Source: Chloroflexota bacterium
GTDB lineage: Bacteria > Chloroflexota > Anaerolineae > DUEN01
DNA length: 64,000 nucleotides
Reading direction: 5' to 3'
Assembly: GCA_013152435.1 (NCBI GenBank)
Contig: JAADGJ010000061.1
Span: 5,034-69,033, forward strand
Part shown: piece after piece, positions 6,404-64,000 of the stretch
Numbering within the stretch: the first letter of the stretch is position 1
How the letters are laid out: every line of letters starts with the position of its first letter
The notes under the pieces: model-generated
Told to the model about the DNA's origin: nothing
Seen by the model: the letters and a program-made list of their open reading frames with translations, nothing else
Database searches by the model: none
Program-made: the position numbers and the translations under genes

Positions 6404-6634
6404 GGTGTGTTGCCGTGGGACCTCTTGGGGACTCTGTTAGGAAACCTGAGCATGTGAGATCCGAGGTGGCAGTTCCCATGCTGTCGCAGGTGGAGCGTGG
6501 TAGCTCCTCCCGCTTGGAGGGCGTGTTTGAGAGATGCCATTGATCTTGAGTCTTCAGACACACCCTGAGGCAACGCGATGGATCCCGCGCCCCATTCCCA
6601 GACATGTTCCTGATTTGCGTAGGAGGATGGGGGT

Positions 6635-7699
6635 ATGACGAAATATGTGATTCGAAGGCTCTTGATGGTGCCCGTGATCCTCATGGGCGTGACGATGCTG
6701 ATCTTTGGTGTGTTGCAGTTTCTGAGCCCGGCTGAACGTTCCGCCTTGTATGTGCGCGATATTCCCAAGAACGAGCGCGCTTTGGAGGGGATTATCCGCC
6801 GCTATGGGCTGGATAAGCCCATCTACGTTCAGTACTGGCGTTGGTTGGTGGGGCAGCGCGATCCGGTGACGGGCGAGATTGTGGGAGGGATTTTGCGGGG
6901 CGACTTGGGCTACTCGCGTACCTCCTCCCAGCCCGTGGCGGATCTGATCAAACACCGGTTCCCCGCGACATTGGAGCTGGCGTTATGGAGCATTATCCCG
7001 ATCATCGGCGGGGGGGTGTGGCTGGGCGTGATCGCTGCCGTCAACCATAACAAATGGATCGATCAGGTGGCCCGCGTGTTCAGCATCGTGGGGTATTCCT
7101 TCCCCACCTTCGTGTTCGGGCTGTTGGTCCTCATGATCTTCTACGCCCATCTGCAGTGGTTCCCTCCCGGGCGTATCTCCGACTGGGCCAATCAGGTGAT
7201 CAACTCGCCCGAGTTTAAGAATTACACGCAATTGATCACGATCGACGCGCTGTTGAATTTGCGTTTCGATGTTTTCCTGGATGCCATGCGGCATCTCCTC
7301 CTTCCCGTGATCACGTTGGCCTATCTCTCCTGGGCTTTGCTGCTGCGCGTGACCCGCTCCTCCATGCTGGAGTCGCTGCGCCAGGATTACATCACGACGG
7401 CCCGGTCCAAGGGACTGCGCGAGCGGGAGGTGATCCGGCGACACGCGCTGCCTAACGCCCTGATCCCCGTGGCGACCATCGGGGGGTTGACCGTGGTGGG
7501 ACTGCTGAACGGCGTCGTGATCACGGAGACGGTGTTCAATTATCCGGGGATCGGCTCGGCGGCCGCCCGGGCCGCGCTGCAGCTCGATGTGGTGACGATC
7601 CTGGCGTTTACGCTATTTAACGGCTTCATCCTGGTCCTCGCCAATCTGGTGGTGGACATCTTGTACGCTTACATTGACCCGCGAGTGCGGTTGGAATAA
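6635..7699 (+). CDS. peptide ABC transporter permease (DppB/OppB-like)
   Basis: Multi-TM protein with the BPD-transporter EAA-like region. RBS GGAGGATGGGGG. Confidence 0.85.
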   Translation: MTKYVIRRLLMVPVILMGVTMLIFGVLQFLSPAERSALYVRDIPKNERALEGIIRRYGLDKPIYVQYWRWLVGQRDPVTGEIVGGILRGDLGYSRTSSQPVADLIKHRFPATLELALWSIIPIIGGGVWLGVIAAVNHNKWIDQVARVFSIVGYSFPTFVFGLLVLMIFYAHLQWFPPGRISDWANQVINSPEFKNYTQLITIDALLNLRFDVFLDAMRHLLLPVITLAYLSWALLLRVTRSSMLESLRQDYITTARSKGLREREVIRRHALPNALIPVATIGGLTVVGLLNGVVITETVFNYPGIGSAAARAALQLDVVTILAFTLFNGFILVLANLVVDILYAYIDPRVRLE

Positions 7700-7720
7700 A
7701 GTAAGGTTGAGGAGTACGCT

Positions 7721-8764
7721 ATGGCTACTGCCACAAAGCCTGTGCAGACGAATGCGATGTCGCAAGCTTTGGCTGAACGCGAGATGGGGCGCTTGGAACG
7801 TTGGCTGGGAACGGAAAATTATCGGGTTCTCAAGGCGCTGGTCACCAATCCCCTCTCCGTAACCGGGTTGGTCCTGCTCGCCTTCTTCGTCTTCATCGCG
7901 GTGGCTGCACCCGTATTGGCTCCGCCGGCCGGCCGGGATCCCTACCGGATCCCGCGCGATGGCTATAGCCCCGACCCCAAGCCGCCGGGCACCGAATGGC
8001 GTCGGCGCGAGCCGCCCCTGCCCTTCTGGTGGAAGCCGATCATGAAGACCGATCGTTGGGTCCACCTGCTGGGGACGGCCAGCGGGCAGTGGGATATCTA
8101 CTACGGTGTGGTGTGGGGAACCCGCACCGCCTTTCGGGTCGGCCTGATCATCACGCTATCCGTGATGACCATTGGGATCCTGATCGGCTCCGTCTCCGCG
8201 TATTACGGGGGATTAGTCGATACGATCCTAATGCGCATCACCGATATCTTCCTGGCCTTTCCCTTCCTGGTGGCCGCGCTGACGCTTTCGGCCATCCTGA
8301 CGCCCATCGTCGGAAAGGGGATCCTTCCCGCCACGATCGCTCTGATCGCCTTTGGCTGGATGGGGTACGCGCGCCTCATTCGGGGGGATATCCTGTCCGT
8401 CAAACAGCGCGATTTCGTGATGGCCGCTCGGGTGATCGGGGTGAAGGATCACAAGATCCTGATCCGCCACATCATTCCCAACGCCATCTTCCCCACCCTG
8501 GTGGTCGCCTCCATGGACATGGGGACGTACGTCCTGAGCTTCGCGGCGCTCAGTTTCCTGGGAATCGGCGCGGAGTTCGGTTACGCGGACTGGGGACAGC
8601 TCCTCTCCTTCGCCCGGGACTGGATCACCCAGCTGGCCACGTATTGGTATATCGTCGTCTTCCCCGGGACGGCCCTCGTCCTCTTCGTCCTCTCCTGGAA
8701 TCTGGTGGGGGACGCGGTGCGGGATATCTTCGACCCGCGCATGCGGGGCCGGGGCGGAGCGTAG
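7721..8764 (+). CDS. peptide ABC transporter permease (DppC/OppC-like)
   Basis: Multi-TM permease with a long N-terminal periplasmic segment. Adjacent to and co-oriented with the DppB-like gene. Confidence 0.85.
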   Translation: MATATKPVQTNAMSQALAEREMGRLERWLGTENYRVLKALVTNPLSVTGLVLLAFFVFIAVAAPVLAPPAGRDPYRIPRDGYSPDPKPPGTEWRRREPPLPFWWKPIMKTDRWVHLLGTASGQWDIYYGVVWGTRTAFRVGLIITLSVMTIGILIGSVSAYYGGLVDTILMRITDIFLAFPFLVAALTLSAILTPIVGKGILPATIALIAFGWMGYARLIRGDILSVKQRDFVMAARVIGVKDHKILIRHIIPNAIFPTLVVASMDMGTYVLSFAALSFLGIGAEFGYADWGQLLSFARDWITQLATYWYIVVFPGTALVLFVLSWNLVGDAVRDIFDPRMRGRGGA

Positions 8765-10684: not shown

Positions 10685-11734
10685 TTGACGCGAGAAGAGG
10701 TTCGGCTGACCGCGATGGCAGCCTGCGCCGGCTGAGCGAGCAAGCTGGCCCCAGAGGCCCTGGCGCAGGTCCTGCGTCCACTTCAAAACCTATTCCCGCC
10801 CGAGGCGCATCCCGAGGTGTTGGTCGGCCTGGGCGCGGTGGATGACGCCGCGGTCTATCGTCTGAACGATCGGCAGGCCATCATCAGCACCACCGATTTC
10901 TTCACGCCCGTGGTGGATGATCCCTATGATTATGGGGCGATCGCCGCGGCCAATGCCATGAGCGATGTGTACGCCATGGGGGGCGATGTCCTCTTCGCCT
11001 TGAACATCGCCGCTTTTCCCGCGGATATGGATCCGGATGTGATCGCTCGGATCCTGCGCGGTGGGGCGGACAAAGTGATGGAGGCGGGAGGGGTGATCGC
11101 CGGAGGGCACACGATCCAGGATCAGGAGCCCAAGTATGGCCTGGCGGTCGTGGGCATGGTGCACCCGGATCGGATCTTCACCAAGGGGGGCGCCCGGCCG
11201 GGCGATACGCTGTTCCTCACCAAACCGCTGGGGACCGGCGCGATCAGCACGGCCCTCAAGCGCGGGCTCGCGCGGGCCGATCACGTGAGCGCTATGGTCG
11301 AGAGCATGAAGCGGCTGAATCGCGTCGCGGCCATGGTTGCCCGGGAGGTCGGCGTTCGGGCGGCCACGGACATCACCGGCTTTGGACTGCTGGGACATGC
11401 CAGCGAGATGGTCCAGGCGAGCGGCGTGGGATTCCGCTTCCGGATGGGCGCGATCCCGCTCTTGCCCGGGGCGGCCGAGTACGCCGCCGAGTGGATCTTC
11501 CCGGGGGGCTCGCACAACAATAAGTCCTTCTACCGTTCCCTGGTGCGCTTCGGCGAGGAGATTCCCGAGGAGCGACAGATGCTTTTGTGGGATGCTCAGA
11601 CCTCGGGCGGGCTGTTGGTCGCCGTCCCGCCCGGCCGGAGTGAGGATTTCCGAACCCTATGTGCGGATCGTGGACAATCGGTTTGGGAGATCGGCGAGGT
11701 GATCGAGGGGACGGGGATTGAGGTAGTCGCCTGA
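10685..11734 (+). CDS. selD: selenide, water dikinase (selenophosphate synthetase) SelD with an in-frame UGA = selenocysteine at residue 17
   Basis: The ORF track starts at 10817, but the upstream in-frame sequence (TTG 10685 with RBS AAGGAG 8 nt upstream) reads LTREEVRLTAMAACAG-U-ASKLAPEALAQVL... This aligns gap-free with the E. coli SelD N-terminus [24 protein letters not shown]. The UGA at 10733-10735 sits exactly at Cys17, and the Lys20 equivalent is conserved. The downstream sequence is a typical SelD/AIR-synthase-related fold (GGHTIQDQEPKYGLAVVG, LFLTKPLGTG). Confidence 0.75.
10733..10735 (+). other. UGA selenocysteine recoding codon inside selD
   Basis: In-frame TGA flanked by conserved SelD active-site residues. 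A GC-rich region 10744-10770 could fold into the required bacterial SECIS hairpin, but I could not fold it reliably by eye. Confidence 0.65.
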
Positions 11735-11756: not shown

Positions 11757-11794
11757 AGAAAACGGAGGGGACGGCCGTCCCCTCCGTTTTTTCC
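11757..11794 (+). terminator. rho-independent terminator of selD
   Basis: GAAAACGGAGGGGACGGCCGTCCCCTCCGTTTTTTCC: a perfect GC hairpin followed by T6. Confidence 0.65.
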
Positions 11795-12062
11795 TTAGAG
11801 CGTGTTTGAGAAATGCCATTGCTTCTACTATGGGGAGGCTCGGAGGGGCGGAGCCCCTCCGGAAAAAGCTTTTCTTTCGCCTTCGACCTGCCTGGCCTCG
11901 GCCTGGGTCCTCCGGAAAGGGCGGAGAAAGGCAGGTGCAGGCCGGAAAAGTGGATTTCCTGTGGAGGGGAGGTCCCCTCCACACCTCCCCCTGTGGAGCT
12001 GATCGCCGAGGAAGCCCCTCAGACACCTTACCGGCAAATTTTCAGAGAGCGTCTGAAGATCA
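11795..12062 (-). repeat. copy A of the dispersed multi-hairpin (MITE-like) intergenic repeat family
   Basis: About 85-90% identical, in reverse orientation, to 49229-49436 when aligned by eye. Contains palindromes GTGGAGGGGAGGTCCCCTCCAC and CGGAGGGGCGGAGCCCCTCCGG and ends carrying GAGCGTGTNTGA motifs. The ORFs predicted here (e.g. 11373..12026) are rejected. Confidence 0.6.
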
Positions 12063-12143: not shown

Positions 12144-14486
12144 TCACTCGCCGGCCGGCGCTGCAGCCGGAGCGGGGGAGCTGAGGATCTCCGCCTCCCG
12201 CTTGGAGGTGGAGATGGCCCACCACAGCACGGCCAGCAGGGCCACGATGACGATGATGGTAAAGACGCTCAATCCCTTGTACTGGACGATGATGGGGGCG
12301 ATGATGACGCTGACCAGGTTCACCACCTTGATCATGGGGTTCAGCGCCGGCCCCGCCGTGTCCTTCAGCGGGTCGCCGACGGTGTCGCCCACCACGCTGG
12401 CCTTGTGGCGCTCGGATCCCTTGCCGGTGTTGGCCTCCAGGTTGCGGGGCTCGTCCTCGATGGTCTTCTTGGCATTGTCCCAGGCGCCACCCGCGTTGGC
12501 CATGAAGACGGCCAGCAGCTGGCCGGACAGGATGATGCCCGCCAGGAAGCCGCCCAGCGCCTCCACCTGCAGGAGCAGCCCGACCACGATCGGGGTCACC
12601 ACGGCGATGGTGGCCAAGGAGACCAGCTCCTTCTGCGCCGCAACGGTGGAGATCTCCACGGCCCGGGCATAGTCCGGCTTCACCGTGCCTTCCAGGATGC
12701 CGGGGATGCGGAACTGTCGCCGGACCTCTTCCACCATCTGCCCGGCCGCGCGGCTCACCGCCCTGATGGCCAGCGAGGAGAATAGCCATGGGATCGCGCC
12801 GCCGATGAGCAGCCCGACGAAGACCACCGGCTCGGACACCCGGATGCCGTTGATCAGCGCCTGCGGATCGATCTTGGCCACGTCGGTGATGTAGGAGCCG
12901 AACAGGGAGACGGCGGCGATGACGGCTGAGCCGATGGCGATGCCCTTGGTGATGGCCTTGGTAGTGTTGCCCACCGCGTCCAGGTCGGTCATGATCTTGC
13001 GGGCGTCCTCATCCATGCCGGCCATCTCGCCGATGCCGTTGGCATTGTCGGCGATGGGACCGAAGGAGTCCATGGCCACGTTATTCCCGGTCAGGGTCAG
13101 CATGCCGATGCCGGTCATAGCCACGCCGTAGAGGACGAAGGCCGTCCGGGCGATGGTGTCAGACGGGACCTTACCCGCCTCCACGAACTGCTGGACCGGG
13201 ACGCCGGCGTAGATCAGGATGGCCGCCCCGATGGTGAGGGCGATGACCAGGATGGCCCACACGGTGGATTCGTATCCCACGCCCAGGCCGGCGAGGATGG
13301 TCGTGGCAGGCCCGCCGTTGGTGGCCTTGCGGATCTCCTGTACAGGCGCCTTCTCGGTACCCGTGAAATAGTCGGTCAGACGGTCAATGAGGATGGCCAG
13401 GAAGACGCCCGCCGTCGTGGAGAGGAAGGGACGCCACCAGCCGCCGGGCACGCCCTCCATGTAGACGATGGCGACGATGCCGAACAGCACAATCGAGATG
13501 GCCGCCGAGGTGAGGTATCCTCGGAAGATGGCCGCCATCGCGTCGCCGCTCTTTTCCGGTCCACCCTTCACTCGATACGTGCCGATGATAGAGGCCAGCA
13601 CGCCGATGCCGCGCACCAGGAGCGGATACAGGATCCACTCGATGTGGCCGGTGATCGCCGTGAGCGCCAAGCCCAGGATCAGGGCCGAGACGATGGTCAC
13701 CTCGTAGGACTCGAAGATGTCCGCCGCCATACCGGCGCAGTCTCCCACGTTGTCCCCTACCAGGTCGGCAACCACGGCCGCGTTCCTAGGGTCATCCTCG
13801 GGGATATCCTGCTCGACCTTACCCACCAGATCGGCGCCGACGTCCGCCGCCTTGGTGTAGATGCCACCACCCACTCGCATGAAGAGCGCCAACAGCGTGC
13901 CGCCGAAGCCGAAGCCCAGAAGTGCGTCCGGCGCAGCCTTGCCGAAGATCATGAAGATCACGGTGCCGCCGAACAGGCCCAGGCCGTCGGTCAACATGCC
14001 CGTGATGGTGCCCGCACGATAGGCGATGCGCAGCGCGTCGCCGAAGCTGTGGCGAGCGGCCGCCGCCACGCGCACGTTGCCCTGCACCGCCATGCGCATG
14101 CCGATCTGCCCCACTGCCAGGGAGAATCCCGCACCCATCATGAAGGCGATGGCGCGCCCGAGCCCTACCAGTAGACGGACAGTGTTTTCACTTCGCCCTG
14201 CGAACCGTTCCATGGCCTCCGCGGTGGGGGGGACGATATACACGCTCAGGAACAGCGCCACCGTGAGGAGCCCGATGAACGGCAGGATCGTGCGGAGCTG
14301 ACGGGTCAGGTACGCGTCGGCTCCTTGGCGGATCGCCTCCCAGACCTCCTGCATCTCCGCCGTGCCTTTGTCCTCTTGCATGATCTGTCTGCGTAGGAAG
14401 ATGGCGTAGAGGAGGCCCAGGATTGCGATGCCCAGTACCGCCCAGACAGCAATTGTCTCCAGGGGAGTCAAACCCATTGTGCCCAT
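12144..14486 (-). CDS. hppA: K+-stimulated / H+-translocating pyrophosphatase (membrane-bound V-type PPase)
   Basis: 780-aa polytopic protein with hallmark H+-PPase motifs (GGG(I/L)YTKAADVGADL, DNVGDCAGM, EYYT-like regions). RBS GGAGG. Confidence 0.9.
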   Translation of the reverse strand: MGTMGLTPLETIAVWAVLGIAILGLLYAIFLRRQIMQEDKGTAEMQEVWEAIRQGADAYLTRQLRTILPFIGLLTVALFLSVYIVPPTAEAMERFAGRSENTVRLLVGLGRAIAFMMGAGFSLAVGQIGMRMAVQGNVRVAAAARHSFGDALRIAYRAGTITGMLTDGLGLFGGTVIFMIFGKAAPDALLGFGFGGTLLALFMRVGGGIYTKAADVGADLVGKVEQDIPEDDPRNAAVVADLVGDNVGDCAGMAADIFESYEVTIVSALILGLALTAITGHIEWILYPLLVRGIGVLASIIGTYRVKGGPEKSGDAMAAIFRGYLTSAAISIVLFGIVAIVYMEGVPGGWWRPFLSTTAGVFLAILIDRLTDYFTGTEKAPVQEIRKATNGGPATTILAGLGVGYESTVWAILVIALTIGAAILIYAGVPVQQFVEAGKVPSDTIARTAFVLYGVAMTGIGMLTLTGNNVAMDSFGPIADNANGIGEMAGMDEDARKIMTDLDAVGNTTKAITKGIAIGSAVIAAVSLFGSYITDVAKIDPQALINGIRVSEPVVFVGLLIGGAIPWLFSSLAIRAVSRAAGQMVEEVRRQFRIPGILEGTVKPDYARAVEISTVAAQKELVSLATIAVVTPIVVGLLLQVEALGGFLAGIILSGQLLAVFMANAGGAWDNAKKTIEDEPRNLEANTGKGSERHKASVVGDTVGDPLKDTAGPALNPMIKVVNLVSVIIAPIIVQYKGLSVFTIIVIVALLAVLWWAISTSKREAEILSSPAPAAAPAGE

Positions 14487-15853: not shown

Positions 15854-15884
15854 GTTGTCCGCCTCCTTATCCCTTGGTCTTGCG

Positions 15885-16050
15885 AGAGTGTGTCTGGGAG
15901 CGTATCCGAAAATTTACCGGTAAGGTGTCTGAGGATCTCCCTCAGCTACCAGCCCCACAGGGAGAAGTGAGGAAGGGACCTTCCCTTCGGGGGAAAGCCC
16001 CTCTGGGCCTCCCCATGGCGGGAGCAACGGGATCTCTCAGACACGCTCCG
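15885..16050 (+). repeat. copy B (shorter) of the dispersed multi-hairpin repeat family
   Basis: Shares GAAAATTTACCGGTAAGGTGTCTGAGG with copy A and TCTCCCTCAGCTACCAGCCCCACAGGG with copy D. Inverted termini GAGTGTGTCTGGGAG and CTCTCAGACACGCTC. Confidence 0.5.
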
Positions 16051-16240
16051 AGTGCATAGCGGCCGGAATTATGCACCGCTCAGGGCGAAAAGTCAAAGCG
16101 CCCGGGGACGGACGCAGGGCTTTTTCAAAGTCAGTGATGGAAATCGGGGGAGGAAGAAAGCCTTTCTTGTGGCCACGGGTCGGCCGGTCTAGGCCTCGCT
16201 TCCCCTGGCCCGGCAGCGTGGTGAACGGGCGCGCGAGGGA

Positions 16241-42943: not shown

Positions 42944-43322
42944 TCGCGTGATGCCGCTTCCATCTGTTCGTCTCGGATAGGCTTCTGATCCGACATAAAT
43001 CGGTTGGGTCGATGCAGATGTTACCCGAGATAGGATCGCATCTTCGGGCATAAACCGACAGGAAGTTGTGCCTCGCGTCGCTCCACGGCCGGATGCTCAA
43101 TGACGGCCCTCATCCCCCAGGCCCCCTTCTCCCGGGTTCGAGAGAAGGGGGCTCAACGGTAGAACACCTATGTTGCTTTTAAGCCTCCGGCCTGCGAATG
43201 TGCCGGAAAGCTATCACCACCCAGGGCTGGATGATCAACTGCGTGGGATAAACGTAAGGCCGTCCCCGACGACGCTGCCGATATTCGCTTGTGAAGGCAC
43301 TTGATCAACCAGAGAAAGCAAC

Positions 43323-43351
43323 CTGACAAGAAGGGCATTCCGTGATATCAT
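43323..43351 (+). promoter_or_regulatory. sigma70-like promoter CTGACA-17-TATCAT upstream of the SARP-family regulator gene
   Basis: Followed by a ~220-nt leader containing two strong GC hairpins. Confidence 0.35.
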
Positions 43352-43574
43352 GGGGCTGCCTCCGGTAGGTGGGGTTGAGCACCACGAACCTACCGAGGTG
43401 GCCGCGCCCCGTCAAGTGGGCGCGGCTCGATTTATGACCAGGTCTCGATTCAGTGACCCTGCTCACAACAAGCGTTAAGGATCGAGCAAACCGAAGCACT
43501 TTGGCCGTCAGCCGATCAGACTGTATGATCCGAGATCGCCTCACGAGCCAGGTGGATGTTGGGGAGATAACACT

Positions 43575-46500
43575 GTGCCGAATATTCGCATTCAGGCCTT
43601 GGGCGCTTTCAGTATGTGGCGAGACAGTATCGCGGTTCCCGATGAAGCCTGGCCTACATCAAAGAGCAAGCAGCTCTTCAAAATCTTACTCACCGAGCGG
43701 GGTCATCTTGTTTCGGCAGACCGGCTCATTGAGTATCTCTGGCCCGATCTGCCGCTTAAAAAAGCCCGGAACAATCTATGGGTAACGGTAAGTCAAGCGC
43801 GGCGTGTGTTGCAGCCTGATTTGCCGCCACGGACTCGCTCTGCTTATATCATCAAGCGCGATGAAGGTTATCTGTTTGATCCCCACAGCGACCACTGGCT
43901 GGACGTGGACGCTTTCAGCGATTACCTTCAGACGGCACAACAGGCAGCAGACCCGACCATCCGTATTGAAGCCCTGGAAAAAGCGCGGCACCTTTACCAG
44001 GGCGATTTCCTTGAGGATGACCCCTACGCAGAATGGGCGCTGGCCCCCCGCGATCGGTTACGAGAACAGTATCTAAACCTGCTGGCCGATTTGGCCGAAA
44101 CCTATGCGCAGCAAGAGCAATACCGCCAGGCTATTGGATTGTGTCGCCAAAGTCTCGCCCTCGAAAACAGCCGCGAATCCACCTATCGCCAATTGATGCT
44201 ATACCTCTATTGCACTGGTGAACAACCCGCCGCCCTGCAACTGTACGATGAGGTATGCCAGGTAATGCGGGAGGAAATCGGTGTTGAACCGGCCCCGGAA
44301 ACGAGCAACCTCTTTCACCAGATTCAACGGCGTCAGGTAGTCGGGGTGGACGAAAAGAAGGTCTACCCGCGCTCGGCATCGACGCACATCAGCACTCATT
44401 CGTTGAGGCAAACACCATTTGTAGGCCGCGCCCGGGAATACGGCCAATTGACCGCCATGGTCAACCAGGCCAACCAGGGCAACGGCTGTGTTGTCTTTGT
44501 CGGTGGTGAGCCGGGCATCGGTAAAAGCCGCCTGATGCGGGAGACGGCTATGTTCGCCGGCAAAGAGGGCTTTACCACGCTCTTTGTCCATAGTTACCAG
44601 GTAGAACAGGCCATGCTTTACCAACCCCTGGTAGACCTGGTCCGACATATCAACGAGACATGGCCGGAGCAAATTGCCGGCCTCCCCACCGTATGGCTCA
44701 GGGAAATCGCTGCACTGGTACCGGAAATTGCCGGCACCGCCACAGGTCAGGCCATTGTCCCCGCCAAAACAGACGAAAACCAGCAGGGACGGCTCTTTCA
44801 AGCCATCGTGCATTTGTTGTCGGCCATCGCCGGAGAAAATGGCCTTATGCTCAACGTGGATGACATCCACTGGGCCGATACAGCGACGCTCCAATTTCTC
44901 CACTATCTGGCCCGGCGTGTGTCTGGCGAACGGATATTGCTGGCCTGTACCTACCGCCACGAGGAAGTGACGGCCGATGAACACCTGGCCGCGCTCATTC
45001 ATCATCTCCAACGCGAGCCGCACGTGACCTTCATCTCCTTAAACCGCCTGTCAAGCACAGACATTGATGAACTGCTGGGCGCTCTGGAAACCGTGCCCAC
45101 TACCTGGAGTGAATGGCTCTATAGCGAAACAAGTGGCAACCCATTCTTTCTTGTTTCTATCCTTCAATTGTTGCAGGAACAGGGGGATTTGGGGAAAACC
45201 GCGCCGGCTGACATTCTCTCGACAGAGATCACCTTACCGGAGGCCATTCAGGAGTCGGTGCGGGGACGCTTGCGACAGGCAACGCAGTTGGAGCAACAGG
45301 TGCTGGGCTGGATGGCTGTTTTTGGTCGCAATTTCAGTTTTGCCACGCTGCAAGCCATCACCGGCCAGAGCCAGTTGGATCTGCTGAAGGTGGTAGAGAG
45401 CCTGCTGCAGCGGCAATTGTGGCAGGAAACGGCAGATGGTTACGACTTTAGCCACCACAAAATTCGCGAAGTGGTCTACCACGACCTGAGCGGGGCGCGT
45501 CGAGTTGTGTACCATGGCCAAATTGCAGAGATGCTGGCGCAATCGGCTGAGGACCGCCCGGCACTCTTGGCCCATCATTTTGAACGGGCCGGGAACACGG
45601 GACAGGCCCTGGCCTATTGGTTGCGGGCGGGCGAGAAGGCCCTCGACGCCTACGCCCTGCAACAGGCTGTTCGTCACTATGAGCGGGCCTTGGCCTTAGC
45701 GGAAGGGGCAGCCGACGAGATGGATGCCTACGAAGGGCTGGGCCGGGCCTTCATGTTGCTGGATGAGGTGGCTCAGGCTACGACCGTGTTGCAGCAAGGC
45801 ATCCAACTGGCGGAAGCGCAAGAAGATGACAGCCGTTATGCTCGCCTGTTGTTTGCGCGGGCCCAGCTTGCCAACCGGCAGCACAAAGTTACCACCAACT
45901 ACGTGCGCGCCGCGTTGTCTGCCGCCGAGCGAGCGGGCGATCTGGCTCTGGTCGCTCAAAATCTGCTGCTGCTTACTGAAATCTATGAAGGCCAGGGGGT
46001 TCTTGACAATGCCCTGGCCACCATTACCCGGGCCCAAACCATCAGCGACGAGTTGGGCGATGTCCACCTGGCAGCCCGTATCCGCAATGAGATTGGCTTT
46101 GTCCACACCCAGCGTGGCGAGTTCGCCGAGGCCATCGATATCGTAAAGCAGGCTCTAGAACCGTTAGCCCAGCTCGAAGACCGGATGTCACTGGCCTATT
46201 CCTGGAATCTGTTGGGACGCGCCTACGGCGGGTATGGTGACTACCAGCAAGCCATCGAGTCCTTTCAGCGCAGCCGGGTGGAAGCAGGAGCGGTCGGCGA
46301 CGGCTACCTCATTGTCCAGACACCCAATATGTTGGGCTGGCTGTACCGTGAATTGTGTGCCTTTGAACAGGCCCTGCAATTTGACCAGGAGGGGGTTGCC
46401 GTGGCCCAGGAGTGGGCTAAGGAGCCGCCGGAAGTTAGCGCCCGGCTCAATGTCTGTCTGGATGTGCTACACCTGGGCGAACCGGACCGGGCCTTGGGGA

Positions 46501-47003
46501 TGTTGGCCCAAATTCAGGAGCGGATCGACGCCGGGGTGTTTGGTTTCCACGCCTGGCGCTGGCGGCTGCGCATACTCCACGCGCGGGGGTTGTGTTTGCT
46601 GGCCATAAACCAACCCGCTGCTGTGCTCTCGCTGGTGGAGGAGGGTTTGACGCTAGCGGAGTCGGCCACGGTGCGCAAGTATGTTGCCCTCTACCATGGG
46701 TTAACAGGTTTGGCTCTGGCCAGGTTAGAGCGAACGGCCGACGCCATCAGCGAACTAGAAACCGCTGTGCAGTTGGCCGATGCCATCCACTATCAACCCC
46801 TTTGCTGGCAAGGTCGCGCCCATTTGGCGGCCTTGTATATCGATGTTGAGCGTCCTCAAGACGCCAAAACAAGCTTAACCGTTGCCCATCAAATCATTCG
46901 GCACATCGCCGATCACCTCACCGATGAAATCCTCCGAAATACCTTCTTAAATGCTGTGCCGGTGCAAGCAATTATCCGGCAACATGATAACTTAATATCT
47001 TGA
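43575..47003 (+). CDS. AfsR/SARP-family regulator: N-terminal wHTH + BTAD, central NB-ARC/AAA ATPase, C-terminal TPR array (STAND NTPase)
   Basis: The N-terminal 250 aa match the SARP DNA-binding/BTAD pattern (ALGAFSMWRD..., LLTERGHLVSADRLIEYLWPD, LYQGDFLEDDPYAEWA). Walker A VVFVGGEPGIGKSRL. Then a long TPR-like repeat region. GTG start with a GGGGAG RBS. GC is clearly lower than in the flanking genes. Confidence 0.8.
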   Translation: MPNIRIQALGAFSMWRDSIAVPDEAWPTSKSKQLFKILLTERGHLVSADRLIEYLWPDLPLKKARNNLWVTVSQARRVLQPDLPPRTRSAYIIKRDEGYLFDPHSDHWLDVDAFSDYLQTAQQAADPTIRIEALEKARHLYQGDFLEDDPYAEWALAPRDRLREQYLNLLADLAETYAQQEQYRQAIGLCRQSLALENSRESTYRQLMLYLYCTGEQPAALQLYDEVCQVMREEIGVEPAPETSNLFHQIQRRQVVGVDEKKVYPRSASTHISTHSLRQTPFVGRAREYGQLTAMVNQANQGNGCVVFVGGEPGIGKSRLMRETAMFAGKEGFTTLFVHSYQVEQAMLYQPLVDLVRHINETWPEQIAGLPTVWLREIAALVPEIAGTATGQAIVPAKTDENQQGRLFQAIVHLLSAIAGENGLMLNVDDIHWADTATLQFLHYLARRVSGERILLACTYRHEEVTADEHLAALIHHLQREPHVTFISLNRLSSTDIDELLGALETVPTTWSEWLYSETSGNPFFLVSILQLLQEQGDLGKTAPADILSTEITLPEAIQESVRGRLRQATQLEQQVLGWMAVFGRNFSFATLQAITGQSQLDLLKVVESLLQRQLWQETADGYDFSHHKIREVVYHDLSGARRVVYHGQIAEMLAQSAEDRPALLAHHFERAGNTGQALAYWLRAGEKALDAYALQQAVRHYERALALAEGAADEMDAYEGLGRAFMLLDEVAQATTVLQQGIQLAEAQEDDSRYARLLFARAQLANRQHKVTTNYVRAALSAAERAGDLALVAQNLLLLTEIYEGQGVLDNALATITRAQTISDELGDVHLAARIRNEIGFVHTQRGEFAEAIDIVKQALEPLAQLEDRMSLAYSWNLLGRAYGGYGDYQQAIESFQRSRVEAGAVGDGYLIVQTPNMLGWLYRELCAFEQALQFDQEGVAVAQEWAKEPPEVSARLNVCLDVLHLGEPDRALGMLAQIQERIDAGVFGFHAWRWRLRILHARGLCLLAINQPAAVLSLVEEGLTLAESATVRKYVALYHGLTGLALARLERTADAISELETAVQLADAIHYQPLCWQGRAHLAALYIDVERPQDAKTSLTVAHQIIRHIADHLTDEILRNTFLNAVPVQAIIRQHDNLIS

Positions 47004-47164
47004 TTGCCGTTTTATTTATCCCCCGCTTGATAAATCCTATTTAGTCCCCATTAAGTCGCGTCTTCTATAATTGGGTCAAGTTCAATCAAACGCAGGGCAT
47101 CTTCTCAGGAATCCCGAGATCGAGAAGATTACTCAACCATTCAACCATCAAACTGGAGAAGGAG

Positions 47165-47818
47165 ATGGCTGTGACGAATATCAAACAATCTGCCGAGAAT
47201 GCGGCATTAACCCTAAATCATGTTGCGCTCGCCAAGCACAAAGGAGTAAATGCACCTCATCCGCTCGTAACCCAAATCCGTTTTGCTCGCAGTGAATTTG
47301 CTCGCTGTTTAGATGGGCTCTCTGATAAAGACGCTCGCCATCGCATTATGCCCATGAACTGCATAAGTTGGATGGTTGGCCATCTGGCAGCCCAAGAGCA
47401 ATACTATTTTGTGTTTTTCCCCCAGGGTGAAGTGCCACACCCCCAATTGAATAAACTGGTCGGCTTCGGCCATCCCGCGTCGACGCCGCCCCTGGCCGAG
47501 ATGTGGCAAATCTGGCACGACATCACCCGAGCCGCGGATGCTTTCCTGGATGCGCTAACCACGGAACAATTGTTGATGCATCTGGAGCAGGAGATTGACG
47601 GATTTGAAGGCTCCTTATTCGGGACGGCCAGCAAGAAGGTTTTGGCACAAAGTAGTGTCCGCTCAAGTGAAAGCGTGGGCACCAGGATGCTTCGCACGAT
47701 CTATCATTACTTTTTTCACACGGGCGAAGCCCATGCCATTCGCCAGCAATTAGGACACCCGGATTTGCCGTATTTTGTAGGAGATATGGAGGCGGCTGTT
47801 TACCAGGGTCATCCCTGA
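47165..47818 (+). CDS. DinB/YfiT-like (DinB_2) family protein
   Basis: Four-helix-bundle DinB-type motifs (MVGHLAAQEQYY, HTGEAHAIRQQLG). RBS AAGGAG. Lower-GC codon usage like the SARP gene. Confidence 0.45.
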   Translation: MAVTNIKQSAENAALTLNHVALAKHKGVNAPHPLVTQIRFARSEFARCLDGLSDKDARHRIMPMNCISWMVGHLAAQEQYYFVFFPQGEVPHPQLNKLVGFGHPASTPPLAEMWQIWHDITRAADAFLDALTTEQLLMHLEQEIDGFEGSLFGTASKKVLAQSSVRSSESVGTRMLRTIYHYFFHTGEAHAIRQQLGHPDLPYFVGDMEAAVYQGHP

Positions 47819-47835
47819 TCCTATCACAGCCAAGA

Positions 47836-48215
47836 TGTCTAAGGGGTCTCCCTCAATCACCAACTCCACAGGGGATGGTGGTGGAGGGGATCGCCCCTCC
47901 ACGGAAAACCCCACTTTTCCTGCCTGCACCTGCCTTTCTCGGTCCTTTCCGAAGGGCCCAGGCCGAGGCCAGGCAGGTTGAAGGCAGAAGAAGGGCTTTT
48001 TCCGGGGGGGCGGTAGCCCCTCCGAAGAAGCCTATTTTCAGCCCCTCACCTGCCCCGTGGGGCCGGAGGCCACCGGCCAAAGCCCCAACCAGGCAGGGAA
48101 AAGGCGAGAGAAAGCGTTTTTCTGCGGAGGGGCTTCCCCTCGGAGGGGCTTCCCCTCCGCACCTCCCCTTTCGGGTGTGACCGCCCGTGGAGGGGAAAAG
48201 CGACAGGCGGGGGCC
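47836..48215 (+). repeat. copy C (longest) of the dispersed multi-hairpin repeat family
   Basis: Same orientation as copy D. Contains GGTGGAGGGGATCGCCCCTCCAC and a tandem duplication GGAGGGGCTTCCCCTC x2 (48126-48157). The overlapping ORFs 47875..48180 and 48046..48375 are rejected. Confidence 0.55.
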
Positions 48216-48420
48216 TCGCCCACGCTGTTCCGTTGATGCGAATAGGGCGCCCCACCGGGTCGCCCTTATCCGAAACGAATGGCGCGGCCCATGTTTCTTT
48301 CACCACGCGAAGATCAATAACTGAAAGAGGAGCGAAAATGTCGGTGATACACATCAAAGGATCTGTCAAACGCATAGGATGAGATCAATCGTCGCATTGG
48401 CTTTCGCAAGGAGATGAGAG

Positions 48421-48660
48421 ATGATCAGATGGAGCGACGTCCGAGGGAGGCAGGAGCACTACAGGGAACTGGTACGCGAGGCAGAGGAGTATCGTCTCGC
48501 GCAGCAGGCCATAAACGGATCGGGAGGATATGACTCTCCTCTTCGTGCCGCGTTCGTATCGTTGAGATCTCTATTGGGAAAAACCATTTGGCAACGCAAT
48601 GCATACCTTCGACAGGTAACCAAGGCTATGCACGCTGCCTGGTTCTCACTCAAACTCTAG
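48421..48660 (+). CDS. small hypothetical protein (79 aa)
   Basis: AAGGAG RBS 7 nt upstream of the ATG. Sits in the low-GC stretch and has no recognisable family. Confidence 0.3.
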   Translation: MIRWSDVRGRQEHYRELVREAEEYRLAQQAINGSGGYDSPLRAAFVSLRSLLGKTIWQRNAYLRQVTKAMHAAWFSLKL

Positions 48661-48912
48661 CTATCGGACACTTTTGAGTGGGCGATGGCCCCTGTCCTCT
48701 GATATGCTGATTGCCAAACCCATCAGCGTCAGAGGGACAGGATGGCCATCATCCACCTACATCGTGCCGTATTGGACGGGGTCCGACGGCTTCGACCCAA
48801 CGAGCGCGTGACACGGGTACGAAACATGGGCTGGTGAATGGCAAGGATCTTCATGGCCCGCAGTATGCATCTGAGCCATATCGCTCGAGGGCTCCCGGGT
48901 CCCAGCCAGAAG

Positions 48913-49104
48913 CTAGCGGTTGTCCCGCCTACTCCACAATGCGCACGTCCACGCCAACAATGCCCCCTCATGAGCAGCAACCCATTGCCCTATCCCGTAG
49001 GGTGTGCTCTCACCAAGAAGAATCCCAAGAGCAATCAAGACCAGAATGAGCTCCCAGGCATGCCGTTTCCCTCGCACTTGCCGGGGATCCGGAACCCCTT
49101 TCAA
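48913..49104 (-). pseudogene. N-terminal fragment (~63 aa) of an ISAs1-family transposase (DDE_Tnp_1-associated domain): an IS remnant
   Basis: VPDPRQVRGKRHAWELILVLIALGILLGESTPYGIGQWVAAHEGAL matches the ISAs1/H-repeat transposase N-terminal pattern PDxRQ..K.H.L.DIL.L.I.A...G......I..F...H. The ORF stops after 63 aa and no DDE core follows. Confidence 0.45.
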
Positions 49105-49186
49105 CGCTTCTACAAGCGTGTTCTATTCATGTAGAACCATCGGCCCGCTCCTCCTTCAATGTGTTCTTTTCCAAGGGCGTGTCTGA

Positions 49187-49436
49187 AGATTGACCAGCTA
49201 GGTGCCTGAGGGTCTCCCTCAGCTACCAGCTCCACAGGGGGAGGTGTGGAGGGGAAACCCCCTCCACGGAAATCTCACTTCTCCGGCTTGCACCTGCCTT
49301 TCTCGGCCCTTTCCGAAGGATCCAGGCCGAGGCCGGGCAGGTCGAAGGCAGAAGATGGACTTTTTCCGGAGGGGCTCCGCCCCTCCGGGCCTCCCCACAG
49401 CAGAAGCAATGGCATTTCTCAGACGCGCTCTAAAAG
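49187..49436 (+). repeat. copy D of the dispersed multi-hairpin repeat family
   Basis: Termini GGCGTGTCTGAAG ... TCTCAGACGCGCTC are inverted. Palindromes GTGGAGGGGAAACCCCCTCCAC (49245-49266) and CCGGAGGGGCTCCGCCCCTCCGG. About 85-90% identical to the reverse complement of copy A. Confidence 0.6.
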
Positions 49437-49588
49437 GAATTTACCGGCGGTTCTTCCCTCTATCACCTCGCGACTCTGAAAAGGCCCTGGGGCGCGTGGG
49501 GCCTCGCGCTGGCGCTCCTGACCCGCTATGCTATAATCCCTGTAGTTTGTCATCATCGATGCGCGGCCGCGAGTAGGAGGGGAAGGGG

Positions 49589-60575: not shown

Positions 60576-63500
60576 TCATTCACCGCGTGTGACGACCACC
60601 GGGATGCGGGTGGTCTGATCGGGCTGTTCCAGCACGATCTCCGTCTCCAGGACGTCGTTCGCGGGCAGCGCCTCCTCCCGGATCGCCAGCTCGACCCGAG
60701 CTCCCCTCCCTCGCTTCACGACCAGCCGATCCCGGTTGACGCGCAGCCACTCCGCCTGTGGATGAACCGTCACGGAGATCGGCGCGTAGCCCGTGTTCTT
60801 CAGCCGCAGGATAGGCGGTGTTTCTCCCAATGTCCATGTCAGCCGGCTGGATCCTACCACCAGCTGCCCGCTGAGCTGGATCTTGATGCGGATGTCCACC
60901 TGCTCCTGTCCCGCGTTGCTGATGACTTCCAGGGCCCCCTCGATGACGTTCTCCCCTTCGCGCAGGCCCTCCGGCGTGGCCCTCACCGTGATGGGTTGTT
61001 GGCCGCCGGTGGGGATCTGGAAGGTGTCGGGCTCCACCGTCAGCCAGGGGACGGAGGCCCGGATCGTGCCCGAGAGCTCGCCTACCCCGCGATTGAACAG
61101 GCTGAGGATGTCCTCCACCGGGACGTAGTTCGCGCTGGTGCCCAGGTCCAGCAGCGGGGGCGTCACCCACAGCTGAGGACGTGCGATGGCCACGGCGCCC
61201 TGGACGGTTCGCTCGCCCGCGTTGCTCTCGATGATCAGGGCCATCTGCGCCTCGTCCTGATCCGCGGGGACGGCCAGCCCGTAAGCATACAGGTGCACCT
61301 GGGACGTCTCACCCGGCGGGGTGGTCCCCTGGGGCATCGTCACCTCCAGCCAGAGCGCCTCGCTGGAGAGGGACCAGGCCAGCGGGGCTGTGCCCGGGTT
61401 GCTGATATACAGGGTCAGCTCTCCGACCCCCTCCCGGGGGATCACACCGAAGTTCAGGAACTCCGGCTCTACCTGCATCTCGGGTTTGTACACCAGGAGC
61501 GAGATCGGGACGTCTCGCGCCCCGGCGTTGCTCTCGATGTGGATGCCCGGGGCCGCCTGCCAGTCTCCGCCCTGCAGCATCTCCTCGGTGCGTGCCTCGA
61601 CGACGACGCGCGCGGATTTCCCCGGCGCGCACTCGATCTCGGTGGGCTCCAGGTGGAGCCAGGGGAGGAGCGCCTTCAGGTTGGCCCTTAGTGGGATCGT
61701 GCCCTGGTTGGATATCCGCAGGCTGCCGCGGCGCACCTCGCCCCACTCCGCTTCGCCCAGATCCAGGGAGATCGGTTTGACCTGCAGCACGGGGGCCAGG
61801 ATCTCCACGGAGGTGGCCAGGATCTTGCGCCCGGCGTTGCTCTCGATGACCAGCGCCTCACCCAGGGCGGTGACCCCGGCTGGGAGCCCCTCCAGATGGG
61901 CGTGTACGCGAATGGATTGCGACTCGCCGGGCGCGCAGGAGAAGCGTTCCGGCGATACGTCGATCCAGTCGCAGCGGGACAGCAGGCGTCCCTCCAGCGG
62001 CGCCGTGCCCGAGTTCGTGATGGTGAGGGTGATCTCCGCCTCCGATCCTCGCTCCCGCGCACCCCACGCCAGCTTCTCTGGCGCGAGGACCATTTCCGGC
62101 TCGGCCCAGCGCCAGCGCACGGAGAGCCGGGCCTGCCCATAGTCGCTGTCCACCACCAGCACGTCGGCGGCCTCCTCGACGCCCGGCGGGGCCAGATCCC
62201 CATGGAACCTCACGTGGATCTTTTGCCCTTCCTCCGCGCCGATTTGAAACTGGCGAGGGGTGACCGAGAGCCAGGTGACCGTGCTCCTCACCGCCCCCTG
62301 GATCTCGCCGCCCCCCTGATTGGCGATCACGATCTCGGCCTGGGCTTCCTGCCCGTGTCGGACCTGCCCGAAGTCGATCGATGTCGGCTGGACGGCCAGA
62401 GAGGGCACGATCAGGCTGGCCAGGGCCGGGATCCAGGTCGCTCCCCGGTTCGTGATGATGCGCAGCGCCCGGGGGGCGCGCTCCCCTTCCAATGGGAGCT
62501 GTTTGCCGTGGGCCACGACGATCACACGCGCCTCCTCGCCGGGCCGACAGCTGAAGCGGGCGTCTCGCACCTCCAGCCAGGGCAACGTGCTTTCCACCTC
62601 GCCCACGAGCACGCCCTGTCCCGTGTTCCGGATGCGCAAAGCTGTGCGTTTGGCCACGCGGCGGGTCAGCCCGCCGAAGGTGAACCGCTGTGGGCGGACG
62701 ATGAACTCCGGATCGGGCGGCGTGGCCTTGATCTCCGCCAGCCAGCGGGCGAAGAGAACCTGGCGTCCCAGCGCGTCCTCCATCTCTCCCCGGTCGAGTA
62801 GCTCTTCCGCCCTCTCCAGGGCGGCCTGGATCTGCTGCGCGATGTGATCCTGCTCGCCCTCCGCCAGCCGGGCGATCTCACGTTGCAGCTGGTCCAGGGT
62901 TTGCCCCCCGTAGAACCGTCGCACGGCGCGCAGCCAATCGCTTCGGGCCTGCTCCGCCAGATGGGATCGCAGGTCGGCCCAGGGATCCAGGGTCGGGTGC
63001 GCGACGATGGCGCTCGCGGCTGGCCGGGTTGGCGCGGCGAAGGAGGAGGGCTCGATGGGCTCCTGCGGGGCTTCCTCCTTTGGACGGGACGGGACGCCGG
63101 GCGCCGCCTTCGCCAGGGCGCGTCGCATGGCCTGGGCGGAGGGGAAGCGACGTTCGGGCGCGCGTTGGCGCGCCCGGCGGATGATCTGGGCCAGGGCCGG
63201 TGGCAATTCGTTCAGCCGGATGGGCGGCTGATTGGGAGCCTGTCGGGTGAGCATGTGGTAGAGCAGGCCGCCCAGCGCATAGAGATCGCTGCGGGCGTCG
63301 GCCTCCCATCGCTCTCGTTGCTCCGGCGCGGCGTACCCTGGGCTGCCGCGATAGCGTGGAGGGCCCTGGTCCCATGGGGTGAACCACGCGCTCAGCCCGA
63401 AGTCGATCAGCTTGACCCGGCCCTCCGTGGTGATCATCACATGCCTGGGGTTCAGGTCGCCGAAGATGAGCGGTGGCGTCTGGCCGTGGAGGAAGGCCAG

Positions 63501-64000
63501 CGCGTCGCAGATTTGCAGCGCCCAGGCCACCGCGGTAAGTTCGTCGATCTCCATTCGGGGATCCGCGATCAGGCGTCGCAGGCTGTGCCCGCGTACCCAC
63601 TCCATGACCAGGTACGAGCGGCCGGCCTGGATGAACATGTCCTGGATGCGGGCCAGACGTGGATGGCGCACCTGGGCCCAGCGGGCCGCCTCCGCGTGGA
63701 ACGATCGCTGCGCCTCGTCGCGCTCGAAGTCGTCGGGCAGGCGGCGCGGATGGAACTCCTTGATCACGCAGCGCCTTCCCAGAGCCTGATCACGCGCCAG
63801 ATAGACGGCGGTGGCATGCCCGCGCTTCAGCCGTTTTTCGATGGTGTAGCGCCCTTGCAGGGTCGTCGGCGCGCCGAAAAGCTCCTCAAAGGAGAGGGGA
63901 TCCGTGAGGCGAGAGCCGCATTGTGGGCAGCGCTGGGCGCCCGGGCGGACGGGCGCGCCGCAGCGTGGGCATCGCGTTTGCAGCGGGAGCCCACAGGATA
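60576..64000 (-). CDS. Ser/Thr protein kinase with an N-terminal zinc ribbon and a C-terminal array of >=8 Ig-like (ASH/PapD-like) beta-sandwich repeats; 5' end outside window
   Basis: The in-frame upstream translation continues past the track's GTG start (63767): ...CPRCGAPVRPGAQRCPQCGSRLTDP...LQGRYTIEKRLKRGHATAVYLARDQALGRRCVIKEF (Zn-ribbon, G-loop, VIK). Kinase subdomains HRDLKPxN-like (FGDLNPRHV), DFG, APE. The C-terminal ~700 aa are tandem ~85-aa repeats with the pattern L.FG......L.I.N.G..PL.G...S...WL.V.P..F.C.PGE. Confidence 0.8.
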   Translation of the reverse strand, partial: SCGLPLQTRCPRCGAPVRPGAQRCPQCGSRLTDPLSFEELFGAPTTLQGRYTIEKRLKRGHATAVYLARDQALGRRCVIKEFHPRRLPDDFERDEAQRSFHAEAARWAQVRHPRLARIQDMFIQAGRSYLVMEWVRGHSLRRLIADPRMEIDELTAVAWALQICDALAFLHGQTPPLIFGDLNPRHVMITTEGRVKLIDFGLSAWFTPWDQGPPRYRGSPGYAAPEQRERWEADARSDLYALGGLLYHMLTRQAPNQPPIRLNELPPALAQIIRRARQRAPERRFPSAQAMRRALAKAAPGVPSRPKEEAPQEPIEPSSFAAPTRPAASAIVAHPTLDPWADLRSHLAEQARSDWLRAVRRFYGGQTLDQLQREIARLAEGEQDHIAQQIQAALERAEELLDRGEMEDALGRQVLFARWLAEIKATPPDPEFIVRPQRFTFGGLTRRVAKRTALRIRNTGQGVLVGEVESTLPWLEVRDARFSCRPGEEARVIVVAHGKQLPLEGERAPRALRIITNRGATWIPALASLIVPSLAVQPTSIDFGQVRHGQEAQAEIVIANQGGGEIQGAVRSTVTWLSVTPRQFQIGAEEGQKIHVRFHGDLAPPGVEEAADVLVVDSDYGQARLSVRWRWAEPEMVLAPEKLAWGARERGSEAEITLTITNSGTAPLEGRLLSRCDWIDVSPERFSCAPGESQSIRVHAHLEGLPAGVTALGEALVIESNAGRKILATSVEILAPVLQVKPISLDLGEAEWGEVRRGSLRISNQGTIPLRANLKALLPWLHLEPTEIECAPGKSARVVVEARTEEMLQGGDWQAAPGIHIESNAGARDVPISLLVYKPEMQVEPEFLNFGVIPREGVGELTLYISNPGTAPLAWSLSSEALWLEVTMPQGTTPPGETSQVHLYAYGLAVPADQDEAQMALIIESNAGERTVQGAVAIARPQLWVTPPLLDLGTSANYVPVEDILSLFNRGVGELSGTIRASVPWLTVEPDTFQIPTGGQQPITVRATPEGLREGENVIEGALEVISNAGQEQVDIRIKIQLSGQLVVGSSRLTWTLGETPPILRLKNTGYAPISVTVHPQAEWLRVNRDRLVVKRGRGARVELAIREEALPANDVLETEIVLEQPDQTTRIPVVVTRGE

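Follow-up and report, generated by a model that had tools for sequence, protein, structure and literature searches.

The 64,000-nucleotide stretch of a Chloroflexota bacterium genome analysed here (assembly GCA_013152435.1, contig JAADGJ010000061.1, positions 5,034 to 69,033 of the forward strand; hereafter referred to as the window) contains a set of hairpin-rich intergenic repeats, and it raises the question of what these repeats are and how they came to lie where they do. A first-pass annotation made from the sequence had left the choice between a non-autonomous mobile element and a structured RNA family resembling the repetitive extragenic palindromes (REPs). In this study, we revisited the repeats and conclude that they are very probably miniature inverted-repeat transposable elements (MITEs), in this case non-coding, non-autonomous cut-and-paste DNA transposons of approximately 257 bp. 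The five copies in the window, which we call A to E, constitute a new family of a well-known kind of element. The mobile-element half of the initial proposal is borne out by the terminal inverted repeats, by 3-bp duplications of the flanking sequence, by the dispersal of the copies, by deletion derivatives that keep their termini and by the match of the termini to those of IS1182-type insertion sequences (ISs).

Four copies had initially been reported, and both pairwise alignments and the pattern of a shared block agree that they exist at about the coordinates first given. Copy A (11795-12046, minus strand) is 85% identical to copy D (49182-49433) over 252 nt without a gap, copies C and D are 88% identical over 106 nt, and copies A and B are 80% identical over 98 nt. 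A pattern with 23 specified bases that was taken from the block common to A-D, CCTCNNNNANCANCNCCACAGGGN{8,9}GGANGGGA, matches exactly four sites in the window, which are those of A-D, and none in 100 dinucleotide-preserving shuffles (0.00 expected). The GC palindromes quoted for the copies are present, as are the inverted termini GAGCGTGTCTGA.../...TCAGACACGCTC, and the statement that every copy is intergenic holds. The limits of the copies had to be mended in part, and a fifth copy in the window, E, had been missed; model positions given in the following refer to a consensus derived from a hidden Markov model (HMM) of ten near-full-length copies. Copy D (49175-49430, plus strand) is the only one in the window that combines full length with two intact terminal repeats, GGGCGTGTCTGAAGAT ... 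ATTTCTCAGACGCGCTC. Copy A (11798-12062, minus strand) is nearly full length (model positions 4-257); its 3' terminal repeat occupies 11798-11814 and is followed by TAA (11795-11797, where the plus strand reads tta), and its 5' terminus is scrambled, with a terminus-like piece, AGAGCGTCTGAAGAT, lying in the opposite orientation at approximately 12047-12061. Copy B (15886-16048, plus strand) is an internal-deletion derivative without the central long hairpin; its terminal repeats are located at 15886-15900 and 16034-16048, and there is a second, tandem terminus at 15898-15912. In the region assigned to copy C, only 47824-48024 (plus strand) belongs to the family, and this part consists of the core (model positions 18-214) without terminal repeats. 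Copy E (6519-6565, minus strand) is a minimal derivative of 47 nt, made up of two termini only, GGGCGTGTTTGAGAGATGCCATTGA ... TCTTCAGACACACCC. Inverted termini had been ascribed to each of the four copies first reported; they are found in B and D, but C has none and in A only the 3' end is sound.

The consensus is approximately 257 nt long, and derivatives range from 47 to approximately 345 nt. Its layout can be written as GAGCGTGTCTGAAAATTTACCGG-AAGGTGTCTGAGGG-TCTCCCTCAG ... CCACAGGGGGAGGT-[GTGGAGGGGA..TCCCCTCCAC]-...-[long hairpin CTGCACCTGCCTTTCTCGGCC...GGCCGAGGCCGGGCAGG]-...-[CCGGAGGGGC...GCCCCTCCGG]-GCCTCCCCACAGCAGAAGCAATGGCATTTCTCAGACACGCTC. The terminal inverted repeats, GAGCGTGTCTGARAAT / ATTYCTCAGACACGCTC, are 15-17 bp long; both are present in B, D and E and, outside the window, in the copies at loci L003, L005, L009 and L014, both are present in diverged form in two copies at locus L150, and most other copies have one end. 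GTGTCTGA occurs a second time 22 nt inwards from the 5' end, and L005 has lost the intervening segment. The interior contains three or four perfect GC hairpins, the loops of which alternate between two states: the loops of the third hairpin read TCC or GGA and TTC or GAA, those of the first hairpin read CC or GG and GA or TC, and the members of each pair are reverse complements of each other. We infer that this loop flip-flop arises when perfect DNA palindromes undergo template switching or cruciform processing, in which case the stems would remain perfect without any selection on RNA.

Nine copies have both ends readable, and five of these are flanked by perfect 3-bp direct repeats, namely B (CGA at 15883-15885 and at 16049-16051), L005 (TAA/TAA), L009 (ATA/ATA), L014 (TCA/TCA) and, provided that a G-to-A change is assumed at its first terminal base, the second L150 copy (TAA/TAA). 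The remaining four agree at two of the three flank bases; these are D (CAA at 49172-49174 and TAA at 49431-49433), L003 (TAA/TGA), E (GGA/TGA) and, under one reading of its 3' end, the first L150 copy (TAA/CAA). As a perfect 3-bp match has a chance of only about 1 in 64 per copy, the finding of five perfect matches among nine copies indicates that the 3-bp target duplication is real. Where only one end is present, TAA(G) usually follows it as well, and from these flanks the preferred target looks like C-TNA-G. Furthermore, the deletion derivatives B, E and L005 have lost parts of the interior and kept the termini, which is the pattern expected if a transposase recognises the termini.

The family is also found outside the window. 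When 185,579 species-representative genomes were scanned once with the shared-block pattern, 15 matches in 14 loci were obtained, all of them in a single metagenome-assembled genome (MAG), 'Chloroflexota bacterium Dive96_bin10.82', and these loci resemble the window only inside the repeat, their neighbouring genes being diverse and unrelated. Dive96_bin10.82 is a sister genome, since 6 kb of its pyrophosphatase contig align with the window at 95.75% identity and an orthologous copy A is present there. Judging by the names of close homologues of the pyrophosphatase, the lineage belongs to the Anaerolineae-type Chloroflexota. A second MAG, GCA_054014295.1, is approximately 99% identical to the window and has copies A, B and E. 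In addition, a contig of this 99% identical strain extends beyond the left edge of the window and contains two further copies in tandem (L150:7250-7488 and 7506-7740), which are placed 160-650 nt before window position 1 and separate an SBP_bac_1 gene from the permease gene that belongs to it. The copies therefore number five in the window, two just outside and at least 15 in the sister MAG, and their flanks are all unrelated. A preference for spacers between binding-protein and permease genes was considered and dropped, because the flanking genes in the sister genome are diverse. Two scans of viral contigs found nothing.

When the terminal repeat GAGCGTGTCTGARAAWTKMC was used as the query in a scan of metagenomes, at least 120 matches were listed (L016-L135, mostly from soil). 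Among the matches listed there is no locus with the family interior, and they include neither further family copies nor an autonomous partner. The terminal sequence GAGCGTGTCTGA(A/G)AA is widespread among them, and many unrelated elements of 90-130 bp bear the same terminus at both ends; among 30 distinct short elements from soil, 13 are flanked by a perfect 3-bp duplication, which in every case has the form TNA. The same set of matches also contains a short terminus-bounded element into which a group II intron reverse-transcriptase gene has inserted (L066), two such elements with IS110-family transposase genes beside them (L055 and L134) and a recurrent human-gut locus (flank taactg) at which the terminal sequence is present without a duplication.

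Complete ISs with ends of this kind point to the type of transposase that may have been involved. Soil contig L110 contains a complete IS of 1545 bp, the left end of which is identical to the MITE terminus over 17 of 17 nt. It encodes a 432-aa transposase with the Pfam domains DUF772 and DDE_Tnp_1, which belongs to the IS1182 family according to NCBIfam model NF033551 (397 bits with a cutoff of 270), and a deletion derivative of this IS is present in L040. An annotated IS1182-family element on plasmid pDSM3922.1 of Alicyclobacillus acidoterrestris has ctag followed directly by GAGCGTGTCCGAG at both ends, which matches the MITE terminus at 12 of 13 bases, and plasmid-borne IS1182-family elements of Dietzia (ctag followed by GAGCGTGGGTCAG) and Bradyrhizobium (ctag followed by GAGCTTGTCTGG) have ends of a similar type. 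As IS1182-family elements have ends of the same sequence, the terminus is of the IS1182/IS5 type. IS1182-family ISs resemble the elements described here in having a terminal repeat of the type GAGCGTGTC(T/C)GAG... and in a TA-centred palindromic insertion context, which is C-TA-G there and C-TNA-G here. However, they are 1.4-1.6 kb long and encode a DDE transposase, whereas the elements described here encode nothing. The first-pass annotation had called for a cognate transposase with matching ends; such ends were found on IS1182-family elements of other organisms but on none in the DNA of this lineage that was examined.

The proposal that the repeats are MITEs has to be set against several observations that weigh against it. 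The terminus-sharing IS1182-family elements are flanked by CTAG, which amounts to a duplication of 2 or 4 bp, and not by a 3-bp duplication as seen here. It has been reported that the IS1182 family is heterogeneous and that some of its members target palindromes (PMC5678879), and a 4-bp repeat is listed for one member (PMC3196728). Within the IS5 family, an insertion site of three nucleotides, as found here, has been described for the IS1031 group (PMC2516522). The mismatch with CTAG weakens the assignment to that particular IS1182 clade, not to the IS5/IS1182 superfamily, to which the element can be assigned from its terminal and flanking sequences, with an IS1182-like or an IS5/IS1031-like subgroup. 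A TNA consensus and 'GAG' ends are features of the IS1031 group, and no IS1031-type transposase was seen in our analysis. Likewise, searches with tblastn and a three-sequence HMM revealed no IS1182/IS5-like transposase in the window, in approximately 100 kb of the sister MAG or at the other related loci, the MAG sequence being fragmentary. The only trace of a transposase in the window is an ISAs1-type N-terminal remnant of 63 aa (48913-49104, minus strand; PF13808, E 5e-9), which lies between copies C and D and has lost the rest of its gene. It was rejected as a parent of the family, because only this fragment is left and because ISAs1-type elements make duplications of 8-10 bp, which are longer than those seen here.

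The comparison of related genomes did not yield a clean empty site at high identity either. In a relative with 87.8% nucleotide identity, the convergent pyrophosphatase and AIRS-family genes are separated by a 100-nt spacer that contains only the shared bidirectional terminator and no element, but this spacer has diverged, and as a presence/absence polymorphism it is supportive and not decisive. A search for an empty site using the substrate-binding protein encoded beside copy E gave no relative closer than 74% identity; when homologues of the gene that follows copy D were sought, the contig of the close strain proved to be interrupted next to the element, and the next relative showed no synteny. 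In addition, no near-identical copies were seen, and hence there is no direct evidence for recent movement.

With these points taken into account, a model can be proposed for the MITE family in which a DDE transposase of the IS5/IS1182 superfamily would have moved the elements in trans by binding to their terminal repeats and making a 3-nt staggered cut at the target. The GC-rich internal hairpins would in this case be cargo rather than a gene. Copies that are located in transcribed spacers, such as the ndk leader and the spacer of an ATP-binding cassette (ABC) transporter operon, may add stable RNA hairpins to the transcripts as a side effect.

Other explanations have to be considered for elements that consist largely of perfect palindromes. 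The repeats could be extragenic palindromes like REPs or bacterial interspersed mosaic elements (BIMEs), spread by a REP-associated tyrosine transposase (RAYT; IS200/IS605-like, of the HUH type) or by recombination and acting as mRNA-stabilising or attenuating hairpins in operon spacers. REP/BIME elements also contain GC-rich perfect hairpins and also lie in operon spacers, including those downstream of transporter binding-protein genes; here, the perfect GC hairpins of the interior fold with z scores of -7.0 to -8.6 relative to shuffled sequence, and several copies are located in operon spacers near substrate-binding-protein genes or beside terminators. It would also be consistent with this idea that the same core occurs under quite different termini in a second element family and, in diverged form and without recognisable termini, in a more distant relative (L138/L139; see below). 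However, the repeating unit is the whole 257-nt element with its terminal inverted repeats and its 3-bp target duplications, which RAYT-type and other HUH elements do not make, and the minimal copy E has retained the termini without the hairpins. REPs are 20-40 bp long and have a GTAG or CGTC head; they possess neither terminal inverted repeats nor target duplications, and they are associated with RAYT transposases (PMC3733652). The hairpins described here have no such tetranucleotide head, and no RAYT gene was seen in the small part of the genome examined. The hairpins were also considered as canonical intrinsic terminators, which was rejected by terminator prediction, as none is predicted inside any copy. 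Taken together, a REP/BIME-like origin appears quite unlikely.

It is even less likely, and in our view very improbable, that the copies form a structured non-coding RNA gene family or a cis-regulatory RNA motif that is kept for its RNA fold. The predicted fold is indeed very stable (-146 to -152 kcal/mol), and copy B is probably located in the 5' leader of ndk, downstream of a promoter-like site. However, the reverse strand folds equally well, which is expected of DNA palindromes and is no argument for an RNA gene, and compensatory change is seen in only 1 of 51 predicted pairs among 16 copies, which are too alike for this test to be informative. Rfam gave no match at gathering thresholds (the best relaxed match reached 22.5 bits with a threshold of 96.5), and scans for tRNA and tmRNA found nothing. 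The orientation relative to the host genes varies, B being antisense in the probable ndk leader, D sense upstream of its neighbour and A between convergent genes; whole hairpins are deleted in some copies, and neither a promoter nor a terminator goes with the repeat unit. On these grounds, the suggestion of a REP-like structured RNA made in the first-pass annotation was not upheld. The possibility that the repeats are remnants of segmental duplications or of a decayed gene or operon, with the shared 'motifs' as former coding sequence, is suggested by open reading frames (ORFs) of 77-128 aa that can be called mechanically through the copies, and it is effectively refuted. The terminal repeats are the exact limits of the similarity, with unrelated sequence outside them, more than 20 unrelated loci carry copies, which lie in either orientation, none of the six ORFs overlapping the copies has a Pfam match, and single-nucleotide indels between copies disrupt every common reading frame. 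The original view that the repeats are not protein-coding thus stands. They are not fragments left by the duplication of a gene, and there are additional copies whose ends are defined.

The features of bacterial MITEs, which are a short non-coding sequence of less than about 600 bp, terminal inverted repeats, a fixed duplication, here of 3 bp, and occurrence at many non-homologous loci, are all found in this family. Correia elements of Neisseria, ERIC, RUP and Nezha are likewise short, non-coding and intergenic elements bounded by terminal inverted repeats; they are often co-transcribed with their neighbours and occur in full-length and in internally deleted forms. None of them is known to have sequence similarity to the family described here, and compared with Correia-type MITEs the interior with its three or four perfect hairpins is unusually GC-rich. 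Correia elements duplicate TA and have functional promoter, IHF and RNase III sites. A 3-nt duplication of the TNA/TAA type is shared with the PIF/Harbinger-Tourist MITEs, the target of PIF being CTTAG/TAA, but these elements are eukaryotic. The literature searched yielded neither a report of MITEs from Chloroflexi nor a mention of the terminal sequence. The family thus adds a MITE to a phylum for which this literature describes none, and it links a MITE to the GAGCGTGTCTGA terminal-repeat type of IS1182/IS5-type transposons, which is widespread in soil metagenomes. The current understanding of transposition is unchanged by it.

Identities between paralogous copies range from 82.7 to 93.0% (mean 87.3%). 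The orthologous copies A of the two sister genomes are 90.4% identical (9.6% substitutions) and differ by the deletion of 31 nt, and the surrounding 6 kb differs by 4.25%; the deletions in copy A take out one hairpin arm and part of the 3' terminus. D is the only intact one among the five copies in the window; the others are crippled. We infer that the amplification took place in a burst shortly before the two sister genomes split, and the family now looks old, inactive and fossil-like.

The hairpin core is not restricted to the 257-nt family. A second MITE-like family in the sister genome Dive96_bin10.82, with the termini GGTAGTGTATCCAAAA ... GATACACTACC and a duplication of approximately 8 bp, is present at L013:6700-6985, at L010:~300 and ~6700-6980, at L015:7180-7470 and at L142:30-265. 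The duplication reads GGCGGAGT on both sides in L013, and seven of eight bases match in L015. The interior of this second family is homologous to the hairpin core of the 257-nt family (nhmmer E 1.6e-16), and the same core is therefore found with two types of terminus, GAGCGTGTCTGA with 3 bp and GGTAGTGTATCC with approximately 8 bp. Diverged intergenic hairpin cores without recognisable terminal repeats are present at L138:9816-10194 and 12626-12673 and at L139:2097-2238 in a more distant relative, which has 77% nucleotide identity in the pyrophosphatase gene and is represented by a 999-kb JGI contig. The core shared by two sets of termini, together with the flipped loops, makes the family a case in which the exchange of MITE interiors and the maintenance of perfect palindromes can be followed. 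It is conceivable, though rather unlikely, that the hairpin core and not the termini is the conserved unit, that is a host-useful or self-propagating DNA or RNA module that has repeatedly been picked up by unrelated transposase systems. If this were true, the core might be a structure that stabilises or attenuates mRNA, or a landing site favoured by palindrome-targeting IS1182-type elements, and the loop flip-flop would mark active cruciform or hairpin processing.

With regard to the surroundings of the individual copies, it had been stated that they lie at operon ends or between convergent genes. This applies to copy A only, which is located between the convergent AIRS-family gene (10817-11734, plus strand) and H+/Na+-pyrophosphatase gene (12144-14486, minus strand) and adjoins a bidirectional terminator hairpin at 11759-11790. 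Both genes next to copy B are on the minus strand; the copy follows a deacetylase-family gene and precedes the start codon of ndk by 31 nt. Copy E is found inside an oligopeptide-type ABC operon, between the substrate-binding-protein gene and a permease gene. It is adjoined by a 62-nt palindrome-containing repeat (6456-6517), which is 82% identical to L012:7780-7841, a sequence that itself lies 38 nt from another family copy. Copies C and D are located in a gene-poor stretch that also holds the IS remnant, with copy D 158 nt upstream of an ADP-ribosylglycohydrolase gene and copy C beginning directly after the stop codon of a DinB/MST-family gene. Copy C is fused head-to-head with a diverged, inverted partial core copy (48004-48175, minus strand; model positions 62-214), and the sequence past this copy, up to approximately 48265, consists of other small repeats that are outside the 257-nt family. 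Short repeats beside copy C are 91-94% identical to sequences of the sister genome (48008-48097 to L013:3940-4029, 48155-48203 to L014:431-479 and 48209-48265 to L009:7669-7724).

The elements also have practical consequences for annotation and assembly, since they give rise to spurious ORFs with lengths of up to 128 aa and interrupt the assembly of MAGs, and masking them is advised in this Chloroflexota lineage. A contig of the 99% identical MAG (L143/L151, position 1 of which corresponds to window position 49509) starts 78 nt after the end of copy D, which suggests that the repeats break short-read assemblies of the lineage. In the 99% identical MAG, copy A contains a 42-nt insert that ends in a run of approximately 28 C residues (L001:6085-6133), which is probably an assembly artefact inside a hairpin.

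Two further observations concern the window as such. The region 43000-49000 has a G+C content of 52-58%, compared with approximately 64% elsewhere, and may be an island that was acquired or is degenerating. It contains a gene for a 1142-aa BTAD/AAA/TPR regulator, the DinB/MST-family gene, the IS remnant and copies C and D. Within a 1063-aa ORF (60576-63767, minus strand), four units with a periodicity of 306-309 nt are present at 60910-61857; they are unrelated to the repeat family and presumably encode tandem protein domains.

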